This document shows, one piece after another, positions 5,486 to 56,993 of a DNA stretch of 64,000 nucleotides. Both the position numbers and the translations under genes were made by a program. The DNA lies in the NCBI GenBank assembly GCA_021780195.1, contig JAJXZE010000001.1:1603-65602 (forward strand), in the 5' to 3' direction. Numbering within the stretch: position 1 is the stretch's first letter; each line of letters begins with the position of its first letter. The stretch is from a bacterium. GTDB lineage: Bacteria; Patescibacteriota; Minisyncoccia; UBA6257; 2-01-FULL-56-20. A model generated the notes under the pieces. That model had not been told where the DNA came from. It did not search any database and saw only the letters and a program-made list of their open reading frames with translations.

Positions 5486-6966
5486 TCGGCCGATATTATA
5501 CGGGCGGGCATCAGCGTGTGCTTTATCTCCGCGAGCAGGGGCTCCCGGAAGGCCGCGAGGAGCGCGACATAAATCAGCGCGGAAGCGGCAATATTCACTG
5601 CAACATTGGCGCCGAGCGCGGCAAGGAGCGTGGTCGTCCCGGCCATCACGACGCCCGCCACGACGACCTTCTTGAGTTGCGGCATCACGGAAAAGTAATT
5701 GATTTTTTTCATGATGTGCCAGAGGTACCAGTTGACGGCGATCTGAGTGGCGAGCGTGCCGAACGCGGACCCCGCCATCCCGAAGCGGGGAATAAGGATG
5801 AGGTCGAGGCCGACGTTCATCACGCCTGCAAGAAGGGAGGTTTTGATGAGGCTTTTCTGGTGGTCATAGGCGAAGATCGCGCCGCTCACGATAGTTGCGG
5901 GAAAGTCGACGAGCATGGTAATCACAAGGATCTGAAACGGGAAAGTTCCGGGGAGATATGCTCCGCCAAAGATAAGACCGAGAATCGGGGCGGCGAGTAT
6001 CGCCCCGCCAAGGGCCATCGGTATTGAAAAGACAAAGGTAAATCCCACGGTACGCTCAAGGACTGTGCGGAATCTCGCTTTTTCCCCGCCATGAACGAGA
6101 CGCGCGAGGAGCGGCATGGTGCTGAATTGGAAAATGACGGGGAGAAGATAGAGAATCTGCACAATGCGGATCGCGGCGGAATAGATGCCGACCTCGGAAG
6201 CGTCCCGCATCCAGCTCAGGATAAGGATGTCCATGTTCGTGAGGAGGAGTCCCAGCGCGCCCGTGACGGCAAATGGCCATGCCGAGGTGAGGATGGGCTT
6301 TACGAGCGCCTTCGAAAACGAAGCGAAGATATTCTTGAGATATTTACGGAGCACGGCCGCCGCCGCGAGCGCGCCCGCCACGGTGCCCAGCGTATATGCC
6401 CAGCCGAGGGAAAGCGGCGAGGGCGATACGGCAAGGAAGGCGAAGCCGAAGACCACGATCATAAGATTCGTGAAAAGGAAAATTGCGGTTTCCCACTCCA
6501 TCTTTTCGCGCCCGCGGAGGAAGGCGGACAGGAAGTCGCGCGTGCTGTCGAAGGCGATGATGAGTGCCACAATGGGGAGGAGGGCGTCGGCGCCGGGCAA
6601 GGTGCTGAAGTATGGGCCGACGAAGATTACGAGGAGAACGATAACGGCGACGAGGACGAGTTTCATTACAAGCGTTGTTGCAAGGATGCGTCGCTCTTCC
6701 TGCTCGTTTTGCGCCTTGGGGGTTTCTCTCATCACCATGGCGTTCACGCCCGGGTCGATGAAGAGCGTGAGGAATCCCGCAAGCGTGAGGGCATACGAAA
6801 ACACGCCGTATCCCGCGGTACCGAGGACGCGGGCGGCGTAAATGATGATCACAGCCTTGAGCGCCCGCCCGCCGAAGTTCGTGACGGCGAGCCAGAAGCT
6901 GTTCTTGGCTACGGTCTGCTTTGCGGTCTTGTTCTCGAAGAGGAATGATTTTATCCGGCGTATCAT
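5482..6966 (-). CDS. oligosaccharide/polysaccharide flippase (Wzx-like, MOP superfamily)
   Basis: 494-aa multi-pass membrane protein, N-terminus KNSFWLAVTNFGGRALKAVIIIYAARVLGTAGYGVFS typical of polysaccharide biosynthesis flippases. Confidence 0.75.
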   Translation of the reverse strand: MIRRIKSFLFENKTAKQTVAKNSFWLAVTNFGGRALKAVIIIYAARVLGTAGYGVFSYALTLAGFLTLFIDPGVNAMVMRETPKAQNEQEERRILATTLVMKLVLVAVIVLLVIFVGPYFSTLPGADALLPIVALIIAFDSTRDFLSAFLRGREKMEWETAIFLFTNLMIVVFGFAFLAVSPSPLSLGWAYTLGTVAGALAAAAVLRKYLKNIFASFSKALVKPILTSAWPFAVTGALGLLLTNMDILILSWMRDASEVGIYSAAIRIVQILYLLPVIFQFSTMPLLARLVHGGEKARFRTVLERTVGFTFVFSIPMALGGAILAAPILGLIFGGAYLPGTFPFQILVITMLVDFPATIVSGAIFAYDHQKSLIKTSLLAGVMNVGLDLILIPRFGMAGSAFGTLATQIAVNWYLWHIMKKINYFSVMPQLKKVVVAGVVMAGTTTLLAALGANVAVNIAASALIYVALLAAFREPLLAEIKHTLMPARIISAD

Positions 6967-9862: not shown

Positions 9863-10465
9863 TCAGGAAAGGGGGACGCGGTTTCTGAATTTCTTGCGCA
9901 TTGCCTTGGTGAACCCGTACATGGCGAGGCCGGCAAGCGTGATGAGCGCCGCGAGGAACATCCACTGGAACCCCTTATTAACCAGTGAGTACAGCTGCCC
10001 GAAGAAATAGCCGATGGAAAAGAGGAATCCTGCCCAGACAAACTCGCCGAAGAAATTGACGGTGAAGTATTTTTTAAAGGGCACGCGCGCCGCGCCGGCG
10101 GCGATCAGAACCGCAATGGCCATACCGAAGCCCGTCGTGAGCTTGGAGATGAAAAGGATCTTCGTCTGGTGCTTATGGAAAAAGGTTTCGGCCCGCTCTA
10201 CATTCGCCTCGGTGACGTCGAAGAAATGGCCGTACTTTTCAATGAGCGGCCTCCCGCCGTACTTTCCCGCGAAATACCATCCGATGTCCGCCGTCAGATC
10301 GCCTGCGACGAGGACGAGGTAGATCGGCCAGAATTCGAAAAATCCCGTGTGCACGAGGAATCCGGCGACTATCATGACGACGGGTCCCTCGACGATGGCC
10401 AAGGGGAAGGCGATCGCGTAGCGGTAGCTCACGAGCCACGCGAGGATGGGGGATGCGGTTGGCAT
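9863..10465 (-). CDS. DedA/SNARE-associated family membrane protein
   Basis: The 200-aa C-terminal part of the 455-aa ORF (MPTASPILAWLVSYRYAIAFPLAIVEGPVVMIVAGFL...) has the DedA pattern; the upstream 255 aa are charged low-complexity sequence antisense to the neighbouring gene, so the start is placed at the internal Met. Confidence 0.7.
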   Translation of the reverse strand: MPTASPILAWLVSYRYAIAFPLAIVEGPVVMIVAGFLVHTGFFEFWPIYLVLVAGDLTADIGWYFAGKYGGRPLIEKYGHFFDVTEANVERAETFFHKHQTKILFISKLTTGFGMAIAVLIAAGAARVPFKKYFTVNFFGEFVWAGFLFSIGYFFGQLYSLVNKGFQWMFLAALITLAGLAMYGFTKAMRKKFRNRVPLS

Positions 10466-17227: not shown

Positions 17228-17380
17228 GAATGCCGAAAGGGCTTTGAAGAGCCAGAATAAAATCCCCCAGCGGGGATTTTTTCTTGTCCCTCGGCCCATT
17301 TGCCGAAAACAAACGAATGTTTTCGGACCGTGCCAAACGGGCCTGCGGGATCCTCTTCAAGGCCCTTTCGGCATTCTTTT
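17228..17380 (+). other. nested stem-loop element directly 3' of tRNA-Ser: 24-bp long-range stem (17228..17251 with 17353..17376) enclosing two hairpins, followed by a T-run
   Basis: gaatgccgaaagggctttgaagag pairs with ctcttcaaggccctttcggcattc (one G-U); the interior holds the intrinsic terminator 17262..17282 and a 9-bp hairpin ccgaaaaca/tgttttcgg. Confidence 0.5.
17262..17282 (+). terminator. rho-independent terminator after tRNA-Ser (ATCCCC-cagc-GGGGAT plus T6)
   Basis: aaaatcccccagcggggatttttt. Confidence 0.6.
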
Positions 17381-17674
17381 GGCGGGTGCGATGACTCGAA
17401 CCGGAGCGCCGCCCCGGGTAGGAGGGAGCCGCGTTCTTACGCGGCGGGTCGGGAACCGAGGGTTCCCGAAACGGGGGTCGGGGCGGCGCGCAAGATTCGA
17501 GGAGCGAGCGTAGCGAGCGACGGAATCCTGTCGATTTATATAAGGGGGTTTCTGGCACGTTTTCCACAAAAACATGCCTTTTCTTTTGTCCACTTTCGGC
17601 AATTTGCCCCTCATTATTTAATAATATACAATGGAGAGGTGGAAATATCACCCTTCCATTAAACATATTGATAT

Positions 17675-48819: not shown

Positions 48820-50100
48820 ATGCTCGGCAAAGGACTTGAATCGCTCATACCGCCGAAGAAGAACGGGAATGGCGCGGGGAACGGCGAGGATGCGTCCGTC
48901 GTTGCGCCGGGAGGCGTTCCCGGGGCGGCGTCTTCGGGCGGAGTTCCGGCGGTTCCGGGAGGGATGGGCGCCGGGTGGAGCAGAACCGCGCCCGGGTCCA
49001 TGCCCGGATCCGTATCCGTATCCGCGTCGGGAGCCGTACTCCCGCCCGATCCCGAAGCTTTTCTTCCCGCCGATCCCGCGCCCGCACCCGCGGCTTTGCC
49101 GCCGGAGACGGCCACGCCTCCCGAGTTGTTGCCGCGTGTCGAACCCGAGGAGGAGCGCGAGCCTTTGATCGTCGAAAGATCCACGCCGCGCCAAGAAGTG
49201 CGCGAGGCGCTCCACGCGCGCCCGGAACGGGATGCCGCGGCAACGAATCGGCCGAAGCCCATGCATGCGGATGATGCCGCACAGGACGAACGCGTATTCC
49301 ATATCGAGATCGACAAGGTGGTACCGAATCCGGGCCAGCCGCGCCGTTATTTCGACGAGAACGGCATCCGCGATCTCGCGCACTCGATCCGCGAGTTCGG
49401 TTTCATCCAACCGCTCGTCGTGTCGAAGGTGGACAAAGAGACCCCGGGCGGCGTCGACGTCGAGTACCAGCTGATCGCCGGCGAGCGGAGGCTCATGGCC
49501 GCAAAGCTCCTCGGCCTCCACTCGGTGCCCGCGATCGTGCGGAACGTGAATCTTGAACGCGAGAAACTCGAACTTGCCGTGATCGAGAATATCCAGCGGG
49601 AAGGACTGAGCCCGATCGAGACCGCGCGCGCGTTCCAGCGGTTACAGGAGGAATTCCGCATGACCCAGCGCGAGATCGCGGCGAAGCTCGGCAAGTCGCG
49701 CGAAGTGGTGGCAAACACGGTGCGCCTTCTCGACCTCCCTGATTACGCGGTCGTCGCCGTCGAGAAAGGGGAGTTGTCCGAGAGCAATGCTCGGTTTGTG
49801 CTCGCGATCGAGGATCCCGCCGCGCAGAAGGCGCTCTTCGACGACATCATCCTGCATAAGCTTACGACGCGCGATGTCCGGGAGCGCGTCCAGCGGTCGG
49901 GCGGCGCGCGGCGCGGACGGCCGCCGAAGAGCGAGGAGCATCTTTCGCCGGATCTGAAGGCCGCGGAGGAATCGCTCGCCATGGATCTCGGCACGCCCGT
50001 CGAGATATACCAGGGTGCGAACAAGGGAAGGATCACGATCACGTTTTACTCCAAGGAGGAGTTGGAGAATATCCTGCGGAAATTGCAGGGAGAGAGCTAA
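48820..50100 (+). CDS. parB: chromosome partitioning protein ParB/Spo0J with long Pro/Ala-rich N-terminal extension
   Basis: IEIDKVVPNPGQPRRYFDENGIRDLAHSIREFGFIQPLVV and IAGERRLMAAKLLG ParB boxes; about 140 aa of low-complexity N-terminus. Confidence 0.85.
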   Translation: MLGKGLESLIPPKKNGNGAGNGEDASVVAPGGVPGAASSGGVPAVPGGMGAGWSRTAPGSMPGSVSVSASGAVLPPDPEAFLPADPAPAPAALPPETATPPELLPRVEPEEEREPLIVERSTPRQEVREALHARPERDAAATNRPKPMHADDAAQDERVFHIEIDKVVPNPGQPRRYFDENGIRDLAHSIREFGFIQPLVVSKVDKETPGGVDVEYQLIAGERRLMAAKLLGLHSVPAIVRNVNLEREKLELAVIENIQREGLSPIETARAFQRLQEEFRMTQREIAAKLGKSREVVANTVRLLDLPDYAVVAVEKGELSESNARFVLAIEDPAAQKALFDDIILHKLTTRDVRERVQRSGGARRGRPPKSEEHLSPDLKAAEESLAMDLGTPVEIYQGANKGRITITFYSKEELENILRKLQGES

Positions 50101-51797
50101 GCGAGCCGGTACTTCACCGATTTCACGCCCTTTATCTTTCTCAGCCTGAGTGAAAGCTTGTCGAGTTTCGACCGCGCCGCAACGGATACCTCGATGCGGT
50201 AGAAACGAAAGTGGCCGTCGCCCCCGGCGTCGGTGTGGAAACTCGCGATGCCGATGCCCTGACGGGCGATGGTTCCCGAAATGTTTTCGATGAGACCGAG
50301 ATGCGGGTCGACGCCGATCGTGATCTCCGCGTGCGTCGGCATTTTGGCCACGCGGGAGAACGCGCCCTTGCCGCGGAGCACGGACCGGATGTGGTCGCGC
50401 GCGAGCGAGGTGGCGACGAAGCGGAGCCAGTCCTCGGACGGCTTCTTACCTTTCTGGGTGATGATCTCCACGACGTCGCCCGATTTGAGCCGGCGGTCGA
50501 GCGGCGTGATGGCGCCGTTCACCTTGGCGCCGGAGGCGCTGTCGCCGATCGCCGAGTGGACGTGGTAGGCGAAATCGATGGGAGTGGAGCCGACCGGGAG
50601 GTCGACCACGTCGCCGTGCGGCGTGACCGCGAAGATGCGGTCCTTGAAGAAATCCACCTTCATCGATTCGAGGAATTCCTCCGGGCTCCCGCCGCCGTCC
50701 GTGAAGCGTTCCTGCCACCGTTTGAGTTGCTGGACCCACTCGAGCTCTTTAGCGAGCCGCGGGCCCGAAGGGGCGCGGACGCCTTTGCGGCGTTCTTCGT
50801 AAAGCCAATGTGCCGCGATGCCATGTTCGTCCTCGTCGTGCATGGCCTTGGTGCGGATCTGGAACTCGATCGTCATGGCGTCGGGGCCGATGACCGTGGT
50901 GTGCAGGCTCCGGTAGCCGTTCGGTTTCGGCATCGCGATATAGTCTTTGATGCGCCGCGGCACCGGGGGCCACTCCTCGTGGATCACGCCGAGCGCCGCG
51001 TAACATTCCGCCACGTCCCGCACGATGATGCGCATGGCGACAAGGTCGTAGATGCGGCCGAGATCCATGTCGCGCTTGAGGAGCTTTTTATAGAGGCTCG
51101 CATAGCGCTTGGCGCGGACCTCGATCGCGAGCGGCGCGATGCCGCGCTCCTCGAGGAGCTTCTTCACCCGCGGCTTCATCTTTTCGAGATACTCGCGCCG
51201 CGCTTCATATTGTTCCTTTGCCGCGCCGAGGAGCCACCGGTATTCTTCCGGATGGAGGTAGGGGAAGGCGAGATCTTGCAGTTCGCCTGAGAGGTCGTGC
51301 ATGCCGAGGCGGTAGGCGAGCGGCGCGTAGATCTCGTCGGTCTCGAGCGCCACGCGCTTCTGCTTCGCGGCGGGGAGGGCGTCCAGGGTCTGCATGTTGT
51401 GGAGGCGGTCGGAGAGCTTGATGAGGACCACGCGGAGATCCTCCGAAATGGCGAGCACCATCTTACGCAGGTTTTCCGCTTTGTCCTCGGCGCCGCGGTA
51501 TTTGATGCGCCCGAGCTTCGTCACGCCGTCCACAAGGAAGGCGACCTCTGCGCCGAACTCCTTTTCGATCTTTTCGAGCGGGACTCCCGTGTCCTCTACG
51601 GTGTCGTGGAGAAGCGCCGCCGCGACGGTCGCGTCGTCGAGGTGCCAGTCGTTCAGGGTCTCGGCCGCCGCAAGAGGATGGTTGAAATACGGCTCGCCGC
51701 TTCTGCGCTCCTGGCCTTTGTGCGCCTCGCGCGCGAACGCGAACGCGCGGCCGACGAGGCCCTGGGGTTCCTTCTTCGCGCGCTCCTTTACGGTCAT
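50097..51797 (-). CDS. rel: bifunctional (p)ppGpp synthetase/hydrolase (RelA/SpoT homolog)
   Basis: HD domain (HPLAAAETL...LLHDTVEDT), synthetase domain, TGS and ACT regions; start placed at MTVKERAKK. Confidence 0.85.
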   Translation of the reverse strand: MTVKERAKKEPQGLVGRAFAFAREAHKGQERRSGEPYFNHPLAAAETLNDWHLDDATVAAALLHDTVEDTGVPLEKIEKEFGAEVAFLVDGVTKLGRIKYRGAEDKAENLRKMVLAISEDLRVVLIKLSDRLHNMQTLDALPAAKQKRVALETDEIYAPLAYRLGMHDLSGELQDLAFPYLHPEEYRWLLGAAKEQYEARREYLEKMKPRVKKLLEERGIAPLAIEVRAKRYASLYKKLLKRDMDLGRIYDLVAMRIIVRDVAECYAALGVIHEEWPPVPRRIKDYIAMPKPNGYRSLHTTVIGPDAMTIEFQIRTKAMHDEDEHGIAAHWLYEERRKGVRAPSGPRLAKELEWVQQLKRWQERFTDGGGSPEEFLESMKVDFFKDRIFAVTPHGDVVDLPVGSTPIDFAYHVHSAIGDSASGAKVNGAITPLDRRLKSGDVVEIITQKGKKPSEDWLRFVATSLARDHIRSVLRGKGAFSRVAKMPTHAEITIGVDPHLGLIENISGTIARQGIGIASFHTDAGGDGHFRFYRIEVSVAARSKLDKLSLRLRKIKGVKSVKYRLA

Positions 51798-51877
51798 TGT
51801 TTTATAGTACGCCGGAATCGGCGCGGATGGCAGGGATTGACAAATTAACAATTTTATTGCGGCTTGTGCCTTTTTTT

Positions 51878-51898
51878 GAGGTTTCAAAGTGAAACCTC
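51878..51898. promoter_or_regulatory. perfect 9-3-9 palindrome GAGGTTTCA-aag-TGAAACCTC (parS-like half-sites GTTTCA/TGAAAC with atypical spacing)
   Basis: Read directly in the intergenic region between divergent rel and mazF-like genes, about 1.8 kb from parB. Confidence 0.4.
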
Positions 51899-51959
51899 AA
51901 ACACTTTTCGTCGCGGATATTTAAGGAGATTTTAATCGTCGGTGTGATACGGTGATTGA

Positions 51960-52361
51960 ATGATGCGTGATGATTTGCTCTCCGTGCTTGACTGGTTGCG
52001 GGCCAAGATTATTCTGTGCGGCAAGATACGGCGGCCCTTCTTTAAGGAGGGGGAAGTCTGGTGGTGTAGCATTGGGTTGAATGTGGGAACAGAAATATAT
52101 GGCAAAGGAAAGAGGTTTACGAGACCGGTACTGGTACTCAAAAAATTCAATCACACATCTTTCCTTGCGGTGCCATTGACCACTCAAATCGGGAGGGGGC
52201 CATGGTATGTCCCGGTGCCTATTCATGGCGGAGCGAGCGCGGGCATCCTCAGCCAAGTGAGGGTTTTTGATAGCCATCGTCTTACCAAAAGGATCGGGAG
52301 TCTGACGGAGCTGCAGTTTCGGGAGGCAAGGGGAAGATTTTCCGCCTTCTATTCTTTTTAA
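51960..52361 (+). CDS. MazF/PemK-family endoribonuclease toxin (no cognate antitoxin gene detected)
   Basis: GEVWWCSIGLNVGTEIYGKGKRFTRPVLVL, LAVPLTTQ, SQVRVFDSHRL align with the MazF/PemK core (GDLIWVDF..RPAVVL, VPCTTQ, DQVKSI); lower GC than the flanks; followed by a terminator hairpin. Confidence 0.7.
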   Translation: MMRDDLLSVLDWLRAKIILCGKIRRPFFKEGEVWWCSIGLNVGTEIYGKGKRFTRPVLVLKKFNHTSFLAVPLTTQIGRGPWYVPVPIHGGASAGILSQVRVFDSHRLTKRIGSLTELQFREARGRFSAFYSF

Positions 52362-52495
52362 AATAGTCACCCCGCTCTTTTGGAGCGGGGTTCGGTGGGT
52401 AATCCCAATAATTTCTTTAATGGTAGCAGTTCGGACGCACGCCGTCAAACTTCTTTTTAGAAAGATTTAATCTGCGGGGCGGTACCGGAAAAACA

Positions 52496-54772
52496 CTACT
52501 CCCGTTTTCGCGCCGCCGTTTTCGGTTTCGCCTTCGGCGGATTTTCTTTCCAGTGGACGAATGCGGCGTCGAGTTCCTCCTGCGTCTCCGGTTTTTTGTT
52601 CATTACGAACGTGCAGTCGGGATAGCGGGTGCAGGCGTAGAACGGCTTACCGCGCCCGCGGGATTTCTTGAGCACGATGTCGCCCGGCTTTTCGCTTCGG
52701 TCGGGAGAGGCGAGGCACGCGGGGCACTTGAAGCCGGTCTTGTCCCATATTTTCGAAACACCTTTGCAGGCCGGATAGTCCGTACAGCCGAGGAAGAAGC
52801 CGAAGCGCCCGCGCCGCACCTTCATCGGTTTTCCGCAGAGGGGACAGCGCTCGTCCTTCGTTTTCTCCTCGAGCGCCCTGATCTCGGCCGCTTCTTCCGG
52901 CATGGGGAGCGTGACTTTCACGCCGGGTTCCGGACAGGCAAGGAATTTTCCCATGCGACCGAACTTGATGATCATCGGCTTCCCGCAGTGGGGGCACGGG
53001 GTCGTCGAAACCTCCACCTGTTTTCCCACGGTCGTCTCCTTTTCATCGAGGTTTTTCTTGAAGGGGACGTAGAACTCGCGGGTCACGTCGGTCCATTTCA
53101 TAGTGCCTTCGGCGATCTCATCGAATTCTTCTTCGATGTGCGAGGTGAATTTGACGTCGACAATCTCGGGGAAGTTTTCGACCAGGAGGTCGTTTACGAG
53201 GATGCCGATCTCCGTCGGGCGGTATTTTTTCTCGATCTTTTCCACGTAGCCGCGGTCCTGGATCGTGGTGAGGGTCGGCGCGTACGTCGACGGACGGCCG
53301 ATGCCGTCGGCCTCGAGCGCTTTGACGAGCGTGGCGTCCGTATAGCGCGCGGGCGGCTCCGTGAAGTGTTGGACGGGCGCGAGCTCGCGGAGCGCGAGCT
53401 CGGCGCCGGTTTCGAGCTTCGGCAGCTGGCCCTCGATCTCCCCGTTCGCGTCGTCGTCCTTTCCCTCGGTGTACGCACGGATGAATCCGTCGAACTTCAC
53501 CGTCTGGCCGTTCGCGCGGAAGATCTCGCCGCGCGGCGTCTCTGCCGCGATGTCTACCGCCGTCTGCTCAAGGACCGCTTCTTTCATCTGTGAGGCAATG
53601 GTGCGCTTCCATACGAGATCGTAAAGCCGCGCCTCGTTGCGCTCTTTTCCCGGGTAATGGACGAGGCCGACGTTCGTCGGGCGGATCGCTTCGTGCGCTT
53701 CCTGCGCGCCCTTGCTTCTGGTCGCGTACCGGCGCGGCGCATCGAGCGCGTATTCCTTTCCGAACTCGGCGCTGATCACGCCGCGGGCGGCTTGGAGCGC
53801 CGCTTCCGCGAGAGTTACGCTGTCGGTTCGCATGTAGGTGATGTAGCCGTTCTCGTATAGCTTTTGCGCGATCATCATGGTCTGTTTCGCGGAGAAGCCG
53901 AGCTTCCGCGCCGCCTCCTGCTGGAGCGTCGAGGTGGTGAAGGGCGGCGAGGGATTGCGGCGCACCTCCTTCACCGCGATGTCCGCCACCCGGTAACGCG
54001 CGCCGCGGAGGCCTTCCACGATCCCGTTCGCCTGCGCGGCGTCTTTCACGCCCATCTTGCCGAGCGCTTTTCCTCCGATCGACTGGAGGGTAGCGGGGAA
54101 CGGCGCGCCGCCTTTGCCGTTCTTCGCCGTGCCGCCAGTGCCGGCGTCGCCGTCCATTCCCGCGAAGGACGCTTCAATCGACCAGTATTCCTCTTTATTG
54201 AACACCTCGATAAGGCGCTCGCGTTCGACGACGAGGCGCACGGCGACGCTTTGCACGCGTCCGGCGGAGAGGCCGTAGCGGATCTTTCTCCAGAGGAATG
54301 GGGAGAGTCCGTAGCCCACGAGGCGGTCGAGAATACGGCGCGCCTGCTGGGCGTCGACGAGGTTGAGGTCGATCGTCCGCGGTTTTTCGAGCGCGGCAAG
54401 AATTGCGTCCTTCGTGATCTCGTGGAACGCGATCCGTTCGTAGGGCTTCGCCGCGCCGCCCTTCTTCTTCGGCGCATCGAGCTCAAGCGCGGCGACGAGG
54501 TGCCACGCGATCGCTTCTCCTTCGCGGTCTTCATCAGTGGCGAGAATGACGCGGCCGGCCTTCTTTGCGAGCGAACGGAGCCGGTCGACGACCGGCTGGG
54601 CCTTCTTCGGAATGATGTAGTGCGGCGCGAAGCCGGCGTCGACGTCGATGCCGAGCTTGCTCTTCGGAAGGTCGCGGATGTGGCCGTACGACGACTCGAC
54701 GACAAAATCCTTGCCGACGAATCTGCCGATGGTTTTCGCTTTGGTGGGTGATTCAACGATGACGAGATCCAT
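52496..54772 (-). CDS. topA: DNA topoisomerase I
   Basis: MDLVIVESPTKAKTIGRFVGKDFVVESSYGHIRDLP TOPRIM N-terminus; C-terminal Zn ribbons (CPHCGKPM..., CPLCGKPM..., CPAC...). Confidence 0.9.
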   Translation of the reverse strand: MDLVIVESPTKAKTIGRFVGKDFVVESSYGHIRDLPKSKLGIDVDAGFAPHYIIPKKAQPVVDRLRSLAKKAGRVILATDEDREGEAIAWHLVAALELDAPKKKGGAAKPYERIAFHEITKDAILAALEKPRTIDLNLVDAQQARRILDRLVGYGLSPFLWRKIRYGLSAGRVQSVAVRLVVERERLIEVFNKEEYWSIEASFAGMDGDAGTGGTAKNGKGGAPFPATLQSIGGKALGKMGVKDAAQANGIVEGLRGARYRVADIAVKEVRRNPSPPFTTSTLQQEAARKLGFSAKQTMMIAQKLYENGYITYMRTDSVTLAEAALQAARGVISAEFGKEYALDAPRRYATRSKGAQEAHEAIRPTNVGLVHYPGKERNEARLYDLVWKRTIASQMKEAVLEQTAVDIAAETPRGEIFRANGQTVKFDGFIRAYTEGKDDDANGEIEGQLPKLETGAELALRELAPVQHFTEPPARYTDATLVKALEADGIGRPSTYAPTLTTIQDRGYVEKIEKKYRPTEIGILVNDLLVENFPEIVDVKFTSHIEEEFDEIAEGTMKWTDVTREFYVPFKKNLDEKETTVGKQVEVSTTPCPHCGKPMIIKFGRMGKFLACPEPGVKVTLPMPEEAAEIRALEEKTKDERCPLCGKPMKVRRGRFGFFLGCTDYPACKGVSKIWDKTGFKCPACLASPDRSEKPGDIVLKKSRGRGKPFYACTRYPDCTFVMNKKPETQEELDAAFVHWKENPPKAKPKTAARKRE

Positions 54773-56947: not shown

Positions 56948-56993
56948 TTTGACGCGTTATCCGTGTTGATATAATATGAACACATGTTCATAT
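56948..56993 (+). promoter_or_regulatory. promoter (TTTGAC, 16 nt, TATAAT) plus 9-2-9 inverted repeat ATATGAACA-ca-TGTTCATAT overlapping the arsR start (candidate ArsR/SmtB 12-2-12-type operator)
   Basis: tttgacgcgttatccgtgttgatataatatgaacacatgttcatat; the palindrome arms match the TGAA..TTCA type seen in CzrA/SmtB operators. Confidence 0.5.

Follow-up and report, generated by a model that had tools for sequence, protein, structure and literature searches.

Endoribonucleases of the MazF/PemK family are textbook type II toxins, and "solo" copies of these genes are usually written off as orphans or decayed loci. Toxins that are controlled by RNA are organized in other ways. In the B. subtilis loci txpA/RatA, bsrG/SR4 and bsrE/SR5 there is no protein antitoxin; instead the toxin gene and the antitoxin RNA gene are convergent and overlap at their 3' ends, with the antitoxin transcribed from the stronger promoter. 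In ToxIN, CptIN and TenpIN the antitoxin is composed of 36-45-nt tandem repeats that are located upstream of the toxin gene on the same strand and are processed by the toxin. In this study we describe a MazF/PemK-family toxin gene in a 64-kb stretch of DNA (64,000 nt, referred to below as the window) from the chromosome of a Paceibacterota metagenome-assembled genome (MAG). This gene has no protein antitoxin beside it and is followed, on the opposite strand, by a predicted ~50-nt small RNA (sRNA) gene whose product is a candidate RNA antitoxin.

In layout the window module appears closest to the type I systems that overlap at the 3' end, with the difference that an RNase serves as the toxin. 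As in txpA/RatA, bsrG/SR4 and bsrE/SR5, there is a convergent RNA at the 3' end, a stronger antitoxin promoter and no protein antitoxin. However, the toxins of the B. subtilis loci are hydrophobic peptides of less than 60 aa, whereas the toxin described here is a 133-aa MazF-fold RNase, and relative to those loci the overlap in the window is short (~50 nt or less) and involves an RNA with a hairpin that is conserved in sequence. With ToxIN, CptIN and TenpIN the module shares a Kid/MazF-like endoribonuclease, a small structured RNA and the form of a compact mobile module, but it has a single RNA unit with its own promoter on the opposite strand, and its toxin matches PemK_toxin and no ToxN family. 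Type II MazEF, PemIK and Kid-Kis systems have the same toxin family, fold and catalytic Arg/Thr; in contrast to them, the window has no MazE/PemI-like gene and no operon, and its toxin has an extra N-terminal helix, a 5-residue insertion and a probably leaderless mRNA.

Control of a protein nuclease toxin by a small RNA is also reported for SymE/SymR (PMC1891008) and RalR/RalA (PMC4041452), which differ in that SymR overlaps the 5' end of its target, RalA acts in trans and the toxins have different folds. The nearest characterized relative is found on the C. jejuni plasmid pVir, where pVir0047 encodes a homologous protein without a protein antitoxin and CJpv3 is a convergent structured sRNA that ends past the pVir0047 stop codon. 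This pair differs from the window copy in that the Campylobacter RNA is 77 nt long with three hairpins, and in being plasmid-borne rather than on a chromosome. A literature search gave no description of a conserved Patescibacteria RNA of this type, of a family-wide RNA-toxin linkage, or of the ORF6N palindrome that is discussed below.

The toxin gene and its predicted convergent small RNA

The toxin gene (51960..52361, plus strand) encodes the 133-aa protein that an earlier sequence-only reading of this DNA had assigned to the MazF/PemK type. This assignment is borne out by a search with the Pfam profile PF02452 (PemK_toxin), which matches residues 29-126 over profile positions 1-104 of 109 with a score of 43.2 bits (cut-off 23.1; E 5e-11). 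The PHROG "MazF-like growth inhibitor" also matches (4e-14), and searches of NCBIfam and PADLOC with the toxin protein returned no match. An AlphaFold2 (AF2) model built from 42 homologues (pLDDT 85.4, pTM 0.79) consists of a 20-residue N-terminal helix followed by a MazF barrel, and each of the top 50 PDB structures returned by Foldseek is a MazF, PemK or MoxT protein, with a target-normalized TM of 0.63-0.77, the best of them being solved MazF/PemK toxins of S. aureus, B. subtilis, B. cereus, B. anthracis, M. tuberculosis and E. coli. When the family profile was aligned with B. subtilis MazF (4MDX), the invariant Arg of the family (R55 in the window, in "RPVLVL") falls on the Arg of "RP", and the Thr/Ser of "VPLTT" (T74 in the window) falls on the Thr of "AITAQ". 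The catalytic pair of the B. subtilis enzyme is presumably R25 and T48, and the aligned R55 and T74 are the likely catalytic residues of the window protein. The N-terminal helix (residues 2-21, with W12 and K16 conserved) is specific to this family; it occurs with its invariant Trp and Lys in all members and is not found in canonical MazFs. All members of the family also have a short insertion before the catalytic Arg, which comprises 5 residues in the window protein. We also considered whether the helix might act as a cis-antitoxin fused to the toxin. Judging from the Pfam match, the modelled fold and the alignment of the Arg and Thr residues, 51960-52361 is an intact MazF/PemK-family endoribonuclease gene with a product that is probably active.

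The toxin family is represented by at least 791 clusters at 50% identity (E<1e-30) and by at least 578 matches in a collection holding one genome per species. Most members are from Patescibacteria (Saccharibacteria, Paceibacterota, Peribacteria and others), with some in Rickettsiales, Micavibrio and Bdellovibrio-like MAGs, and the family also occurs on Campylobacterota plasmids and prophages. For comparison with the window we used homologous stretches (L001 and so on) that include 82 toxin-family loci, mostly from Patescibacteria. The homologues reside in mutually unrelated contexts; for example, one copy lies between uvrC-side genes and uvrA while another lies between two transketolase genes. 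The observation that no antitoxin open reading frame (ORF) adjoins the toxin gene holds for proteins both in the window and in 75 homologous loci. Specifically, in the window no ORF of at least 60 aa separates the toxin gene from rel on one side or from topA on the other, and no neighboring ORF or protein recurs in the 75 loci once trivially related genomes are set aside. A search of these loci for a hidden small protein antitoxin found mechanical ORFs, none of which is recurrent between loci. Since an adjacent protein antitoxin was sought and not found, this is not a type II module. ORF6N-domain genes were considered as a functional partner of the toxin and rejected, as just 1 of the 82 loci has an ORF6N gene in the vicinity of the toxin. 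In a Peribacteraceae MAG, an Rfam match to the DUF3800-V RNA (51.6 bits, above the gathering score; L084 1539-1638, plus strand) lies 1.4 kb upstream of a family member.

The predicted sRNA gene (52361..52413, minus strand), recognized by a covariance-model match and by folding, is convergent with the toxin gene. From its 5' end the RNA consists of AAUUAU, a hairpin that we call hairpin A (UGGG-AUUA-CCCA preceded by A; 52396-52407, minus strand, from the covariance model), a CCGA linker, a terminator hairpin (52369-52391, minus strand) and a U-run that ends at the toxin stop codon. The covariance model finds this element as its single match in 64 kb (35.4 bits, E 2e-9), and the minimum free energy of the RNA is -22.7 kcal/mol (z -4.8). 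Rfam searches at permissive E-values over the window sRNA, the palindrome upstream of the toxin gene and 10 loci yielded no family. A promoter scan located a sigma-70-type promoter for the sRNA (52420..52448, minus strand) that has a -35 of TTGACG (52448..52443), a 17-nt spacer and a -10 of TACCAT (52425..52420), with the transcription start expected near 52413. Upstream of the -35 is an A/T-rich stretch (52449..52476; GATTAAATCTTTCTAAAAAGAAG on the minus strand) that is conserved in the closest relatives (L001, L008, L010, L011) and may function as an UP element. The hairpin at 52369-52391 had been read as a terminator downstream of the toxin gene. The hairpin is indeed present, but the T-run that accompanies it belongs to the minus strand, and it is therefore no terminator for the toxin gene; moreover, no plus-strand terminator was seen between the toxin stop codon and the sRNA promoter.

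Nearly all loci show the same minus-strand layout within 130 nt past the stop codon, namely TTGACA, 16-18 nt, TATAAT, ~7 nt and then the RNA. The family RNA begins with 5'-AUAUU and continues with hairpin A (UGGN-loop-NCCA), CGA, a GC-rich hairpin with a GNRA loop and a U-run that ends at the toxin 3' end or up to 45 nt inside it. A minus-strand promoter with a match of at least 9/12 is present at the sRNA position in 61 loci. A strict parse, defined by a promoter match of at least 8/12, two hairpins and a U-tail no more than 45 nt from the stop codon, is satisfied in 58/82 loci, with a median promoter match of 11/12 (TTGACA-N16-18-TATAAT) and a median RNA length of 47 nt. RNAalifold found no pairs in a raw MAFFT alignment of the RNA region, owing to misalignment of the variable terminators, and this analysis was replaced by a covariance model seeded on a hand-checked 7-sequence alignment. 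This model matches 55/82 loci, in all cases adjacent to the toxin gene and on the minus strand, and the strict parse and the model together identify the sRNA in 69/82 loci.

The alignment derived from the covariance model supports the predicted structure. Standard pairs occupy 97.9% of cells as compared with 70% when shuffled and 59-70% when the pairing partner is slid by one column, and 169 cells are altered on both sides of a pair where 44 are expected from shuffles. Hairpin A (4 bp) is paired in 100% of the sequences and exhibits UA<->CG and GC<->CG swaps. The transcribed strand is identified as the minus strand by three independent features: an excess of G-U over A-C pairs (20:3) in the minus-strand reading, terminator loops that are GNRA on that reading only, and a U-run that comes after the hairpin on this strand alone. 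Among 59 RNAs from very divergent hosts, U6, G8, G9, C22, C23, C26 and G29 are near-invariant. The RNA overlaps the 3' end of the coding sequence (CDS) in 17 of the 58 strictly parsed loci, accompanies the toxin gene into Alphaproteobacteria and Bdellovibrio-like genomes, and is present separately for each toxin gene in L039 and L086, which have second copies. We conclude that the RNA gene is very probably real and functionally tied to the toxin. The proposal that this is an orphan toxin with an antitoxin that is encoded elsewhere or lost is thus not borne out, as a conserved convergent sRNA gene stands directly behind the stop codon in the window and across the family. Extra sRNA-like copies without a toxin gene were also observed, two of them in tandem after one gene in L023 (1823-1884 and 1923-1975) and another upstream of a gene in L031 (2903-2953); these could be orphan antitoxins or remnants of tandem modules.

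The toxin gene is itself preceded by a putative extended -10 element (TGtGATACG; 51943..51951, plus strand), to which a count of TANNNT offsets across the family draws attention. A TANNNT hexamer ends 5-9 nt upstream of the ATG in 36/74 family loci as compared with 5-19 at control offsets, and a Shine-Dalgarno-like tetramer is found upstream of the toxin ATG in only 2/74. Toxin genes across the family thus appear to be leaderless, and since the putative -10 in the window ends 8 nt upstream of the ATG, the window toxin mRNA is probably leaderless as well. No recognizable -35 element is present upstream of this -10, so the toxin promoter looks weak. A sub-clade that includes Yanofskybacteria and others (L066, L068, L069, L076, L040, L043) has a palindrome of its own ~40 nt ahead of the toxin ATG; in one case it reads ACAAAGTCTGGTAATTTTTACCAGACTTTGT, with TTTTAATA and the ATG behind it. 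The same sub-clade also has a different sRNA hairpin A (CGGCUUCGGCCUCGA). The upstream palindromes of L068 and L069, located at -38, are unrelated in sequence to the palindrome in the window.

The Campylobacter counterpart and the possible mode of toxin control

A tblastn search of plasmids identified CJJ81176_pVir0047, on plasmid pVir of C. jejuni 81-176, as a homologue of the window toxin (32% identity, E 1e-20). This protein has an N-terminal "F-D-x-W-N-x-x-K" motif and an insertion before the catalytic RP, as does the window family, and it is annotated as a PemK/MazF toxin with no antitoxin gene beside it. In Table S12 of Dugar 2013 (PMC3656092), CJpv3 is a Northern-detected minus-strand sRNA of 77 nt (31119->31043) flanked in "><>" orientation by pVir0047 and pVir0048. 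When checked against the pVir sequence, the CJpv3 probe falls directly past the pVir0047 stop codon. CJpv3 has a TATAAT promoter and a GC hairpin terminator, and ends ~5 nt after this stop codon. Thus, one family member has a convergent sRNA at the stop codon for which there is Northern blot evidence. The same toxin-sRNA layout is apparent by sequence on Nitratiruptor and H. suis plasmids and in prophage CJIE4. In addition, a type I system with an RNA antitoxin, CjrA, is attributed to pVir by Shen et al. 2016 as cited in PMC10470494 and PMC7826846. CjpT/CjrA is possibly the pVir0047/CJpv3 pair, where CjpT is what we take to be the name of the "proteic toxin" of that system.

We consider it probable that the convergent RNA is the antitoxin of the toxin. 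The system would be a compact and horizontally mobile two-part module of ~0.55-0.7 kb, consisting of a MazF/PemK-family RNase gene and, on the opposite strand, a gene for a ~50-nt sRNA that would be driven by a strong sigma-70 promoter of its own and would end in an intrinsic terminator that abuts or overlaps the toxin stop codon. As there is no plus-strand terminator before the sRNA promoter, the toxin mRNA would continue across the sRNA gene and contain the full complement of the sRNA. An abundant sRNA would then keep the weakly transcribed, leaderless toxin mRNA silent, either through an antisense duplex at the 3' end that is open to RNase III-type decay, through convergent transcriptional interference, or through both, and the conserved hairpin A and CGA linker may also contact the toxin protein. 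We infer that the sRNA is expressed in the source organism and that it neutralizes the toxin. In this model the module would have inserted at the junction of topA and rel, and the palindrome upstream of the toxin gene would be unrelated to it.

Several points weigh against this model. Type I toxins are normally small membrane peptides and not RNases, while the toxin here is a soluble 133-aa MazF-fold protein and not a small hydrophobic peptide. There are also 13/82 loci in which no clear RNA was recognized by the strict parse or the covariance model. With regard to pVir, the covariance model of the Patescibacteria RNAs gives no match to the Campylobacter RNA, so the resemblance may be an analogy of layout rather than homology of the RNAs, and a second sRNA reported from pVir, CJpv2, is an alternative candidate for CjrA. 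Furthermore, predicted duplexes between the sRNA and the toxin mRNA 5' end average -18.0 kcal/mol for cognate and -17.5 kcal/mol for non-cognate pairs, and trans pairing with this region was rejected as a family-wide mechanism for want of a cognate advantage. The window is a single outlier, with a predicted duplex of -30 kcal/mol between the sRNA and its own toxin mRNA (51950-52019, plus strand, codons 14-20) that may be due to chance. Finally, pure cis-antisense action does not explain the strong sequence conservation seen in hairpin A and the CGA linker.

This conservation, together with the lack of family-wide 5' pairing, leaves room for direct binding of the protein by the RNA in a type III-like manner. 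In such a scheme the sRNA would neutralize the toxin mainly by direct binding, with hairpin A and its single-stranded flanks acting as a pseudo-substrate that is possibly gripped by the family-specific N-terminal helix, and antisense pairing would be secondary. We view this as a tentative alternative. It would account for hairpin A and its flanks being conserved in sequence besides structure, which pure cis-antisense action does not need, and coding constraint provides no explanation for this conservation as the RNA is mostly outside of the CDS. It would also give a role to the extra conserved helix with its invariant Trp and Lys that canonical MazFs do not have, and the ToxN fold, which is presumably Kid/MazF-like, is a precedent for inhibition of such a fold by RNA. 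However, there is no tandem-repeat RNA and there are no processing sites, and a search of 51750-52520 found no tandem or direct repeats of the ToxI kind. The RNA also differs from ToxI, CptI and TenpI in being encoded on the opposite strand behind a separate promoter, and the constant placement of its terminator at the stop codon suggests that the overlap as such has a function.

We regard it as unlikely that the RNA is real but is something other than an antitoxin, such as an antisense RNA or bidirectional terminator that tunes a non-toxic, housekeeping-type MazF-like RNase, or a substrate or cofactor of this enzyme. There are precedents for this reading in that solo MazF homologues with non-TA (toxin-antitoxin) roles are known, for example the M. 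xanthus MazF treated in PMC2701414, and an antisense RNA that stimulates rather than represses mazEF is described in PMC8749433. But addiction or defense modules typically show the kind of patchy, mobile and often multi-copy spread that this family has through plasmids, prophages and insertion hot spots, a strong RNA promoter opposed to a weak toxin promoter fits TA logic, and the plasmid with a homologue, pVir, is one on which the sources cited above place a type I TA system.

The topA-rel junction and the ORF6N palindrome

The toxin-sRNA module is part of a low-GC variable segment between topA and rel (51798..52495), as delimited by the GC profile and by the topA-rel junction of relatives. 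The GC content is 0.43-0.55 over 51800-52500 versus 0.60-0.68 in the flanks, in agreement with the earlier remark that the toxin gene is AT-richer than its neighbors, and the toxin segment is compositionally foreign. The sequence-only reading was also correct that rel is upstream and divergent, although its start is 51797 (minus strand) and not 51798, that topA is downstream and convergent (stop at 52496), and that parAB is ~1.8 kb distant (the end of parB is at 50100). The ParB of the window (48820-50100) has ~90 extra Pro/Ala/Gly-rich residues near its N-terminus relative to the 337-aa ParB of a relative (L090). Public gene calls (GCA_027352685.1 contig DAIEIM010000016.1; ENA assembly) include 0 genes in the 700 bp between topA and rel (equivalent to L087/L088 2303-3000), and the MazF-like gene is thus unannotated in the public record of the window. 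A look-up of the exact toxin protein sequence gave no match because the gene is uncalled in that record.

Both topA and rel are on the minus strand, and in L090, which has a Rel protein of 72% identity, they are only 35 bp apart (L090 3966-4000), a spacer that is occupied by the rel promoter. The -10-like TACTAT box of rel is located 6 nt upstream of the rel ATG. Other relatives have different cargo at this position, such as a 184-aa ORF without a Pfam match in L089 (3201-4000) and an intact ORF6N gene in L091 (3284-4000). Judged by these relatives, related Paceibacterota have a variable hot spot for insertions at the topA-rel junction, and by the same comparison 51798-52495 is material inserted between the two genes. 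As relatives have junctions that are empty or that carry other cargo, adjacency of the toxin gene to rel is incidental; the idea that placement beside rel is functionally suggestive is accordingly not upheld, and the two further homologues whose surroundings have called genes also lie in unrelated neighborhoods. The sRNA terminator would, in its present position, also block read-through from topA. In L089 a reverse-transcriptase gene (RVT_1, 393 aa; 5739-6920, minus strand) lies directly downstream of rel, between rel and a fragmented parB.

A T-rich motif (GATTTTAATC / GATTTAATC) is present at both ends of the module in the window (51918-51937 and 52449-52476) and in the closest relatives. 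In the form TTTAAT or TTTATC it lies 9-10 nt upstream of the -10 box of leaderless toxin genes, often repeated with an 11-nt phase, and is found in the upstream regions of L001, L008-L012, L034, L035, L052, L054, L056, L074 and L077 as well as in L091 (3290-3310). For these direct repeats a promoter element, curved DNA and an insertion scar are all conceivable explanations. We provisionally treat them as promoter-associated because the same motif precedes other leaderless genes such as the L091 ORF6N gene.

Upstream of the toxin gene is a perfect palindrome (51875..51901), identified by a palindrome search and of the ORF6N type discussed below, with arms TTTGAGGTTTCA (51875-51886) and TGAAACCTCAAA (51890-51901) separated by AAG. 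It had been reported as a perfect 9-3-9 palindrome ~60 nt upstream of the toxin gene with GTTTCA/TGAAAC in its arms at altered spacing. The palindrome is indeed perfect, ends 59 nt before the ATG and contains these halves 3 bp apart versus 2 in parS, but its arms are 12-3-12 rather than 9 bp in length. This is the longest palindrome of the window, and arms of at least 12 arise at 0.035 per composition-preserving shuffle. The window contains five further perfect palindromes, with arm lengths of 9-10 bp, at 56974-56993 (ATATGAACACATGTTCATAT), 53380-53402, 17259-17280, 17449-17469 and 54579-54597, and in total six palindromes with arms of at least 9 are seen where 1.8 are expected.

A highly non-random palindrome between divergent genes, with arms that resemble parS half-sites and with parAB 1.8 kb away, invites the reading that the toxin is an orphan with the palindrome as its operator, or that the palindrome is a degenerate parS bound by ParB. 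We find either version very improbable. Counts of k-mers show no such motif upstream of 75 other toxin-family members, so that it is not a family operator. With regard to parS, the half-sites are offset by 9 bp rather than 8, and a scan for the 16-bp palindromic consensus tGTTNCACGTGAAACa with up to 3 mismatches detected 0 canonical sites within 64 kb, leaving none in the window for comparison. Neither the operator nor the parS proposal is therefore retained, and both are better replaced by an explanation based on ORF6N genes, since the 27-mer is found, with a difference of one loop base, as a coding palindrome inside ORF6N genes of many unrelated metagenomes, and a relative (L091) has an intact ORF6N gene at this position.

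The exact core GAGGTTTCANNNTGAAACCTC is present in at least 120 metagenome contigs that range from 23 to 64% GC. In at least 65 of the 80 contigs examined it is located within an ORF6N-domain (PF10543) gene, where it codes for L-R-F-[Q/H]-x-E-T-S, and its flanks covary (cTTGAGG...CCTCAAg versus tTTGAGG...CCTCAAa). The minus strand of the window, TTTGAGGTTTCAcTTTGAAACCTCAAA, codes for LRFHFETSK and is one loop base from an intact ORF6N gene in L118 (9705-10214; palindrome ~9905-9931). The palindrome belongs to a 32-codon minus-strand remnant ORF ("LRFHFETSKKG..."; 51900..51802) that ends 5 nt before rel and is on the same strand as the L091 ORF6N gene. A tblastn search with an ORF6N protein aligns ~31 codons at 51900-51808 (E 0.07 against all loci, 1e-4 locally), and the RFPEDFMF and YLPYAFTE motifs are missing at the remnant, which holds no intact ORF6N coding sequence. 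The simplest reading is that the palindrome would be the relic of an ORF6N gene that was truncated on both sides by the toxin-RNA module or by later decay. As only ~31 codons align, the remnant may instead be an independently inserted copy of the palindromic unit.

ORF6N genes that were collected through their other motifs have different palindromes at the same site, for example 17-1-17 in L091 (3540-3574), 15-1-15 in L056 and L272, and 7-1-7 in others. Resampling of synonymous codons gave a mean best arm of 4.75, and arms of at least 12 occurred in 0/600 trials. Throughout the set (L092-L171, L056, L091, L118, L272) the internal palindrome is centered on Q-[I/F] codons with arms of 7-17 bp, far above the synonymous-codon nulls. 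The arms differ by lineage yet stay complementary through protein-changing substitutions (LRFQIETS, LMSQFATS, WMYQFGTS, LKCQFGIS), and some genes contain 2-3 in-frame tandem palindromic units (L093, L153, L158, L127, L132). The palindrome that drew attention to this region is thereby explained away, and a nucleotide-level palindrome that is conserved inside ORF6N genes is brought to light, with no earlier report of it found.

Implications for solo MazF toxins

The analysis indicates that a sub-family of solo MazF toxins carries a conserved, separately promoted sRNA instead of a protein antitoxin, a feature that genome annotation has missed. If this RNA is the antitoxin, then censuses of TA systems in candidate-phyla-radiation bacteria are wrong for this MazF family, and MazF toxins would be controllable by RNA in a manner that bridges type I, II and III systems. 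The module would also constitute a minimal addiction or defense cassette of ~0.6 kb that is open to experiment. It is conceivable, though rather doubtful, that this "solitary" MazF-fold family is neutralized through direct contact of the protein with a single-hairpin RNA of ~50 nt, via UGGN...NCCA-CGA and the N-terminal helix. Should direct binding prove to be true, the module would represent an unrecognized type III-like, or hybrid type I/III, class of TA system that links canonical MazF to ToxN, and it would be the dominant MazF system of ultra-small symbiotic bacteria.

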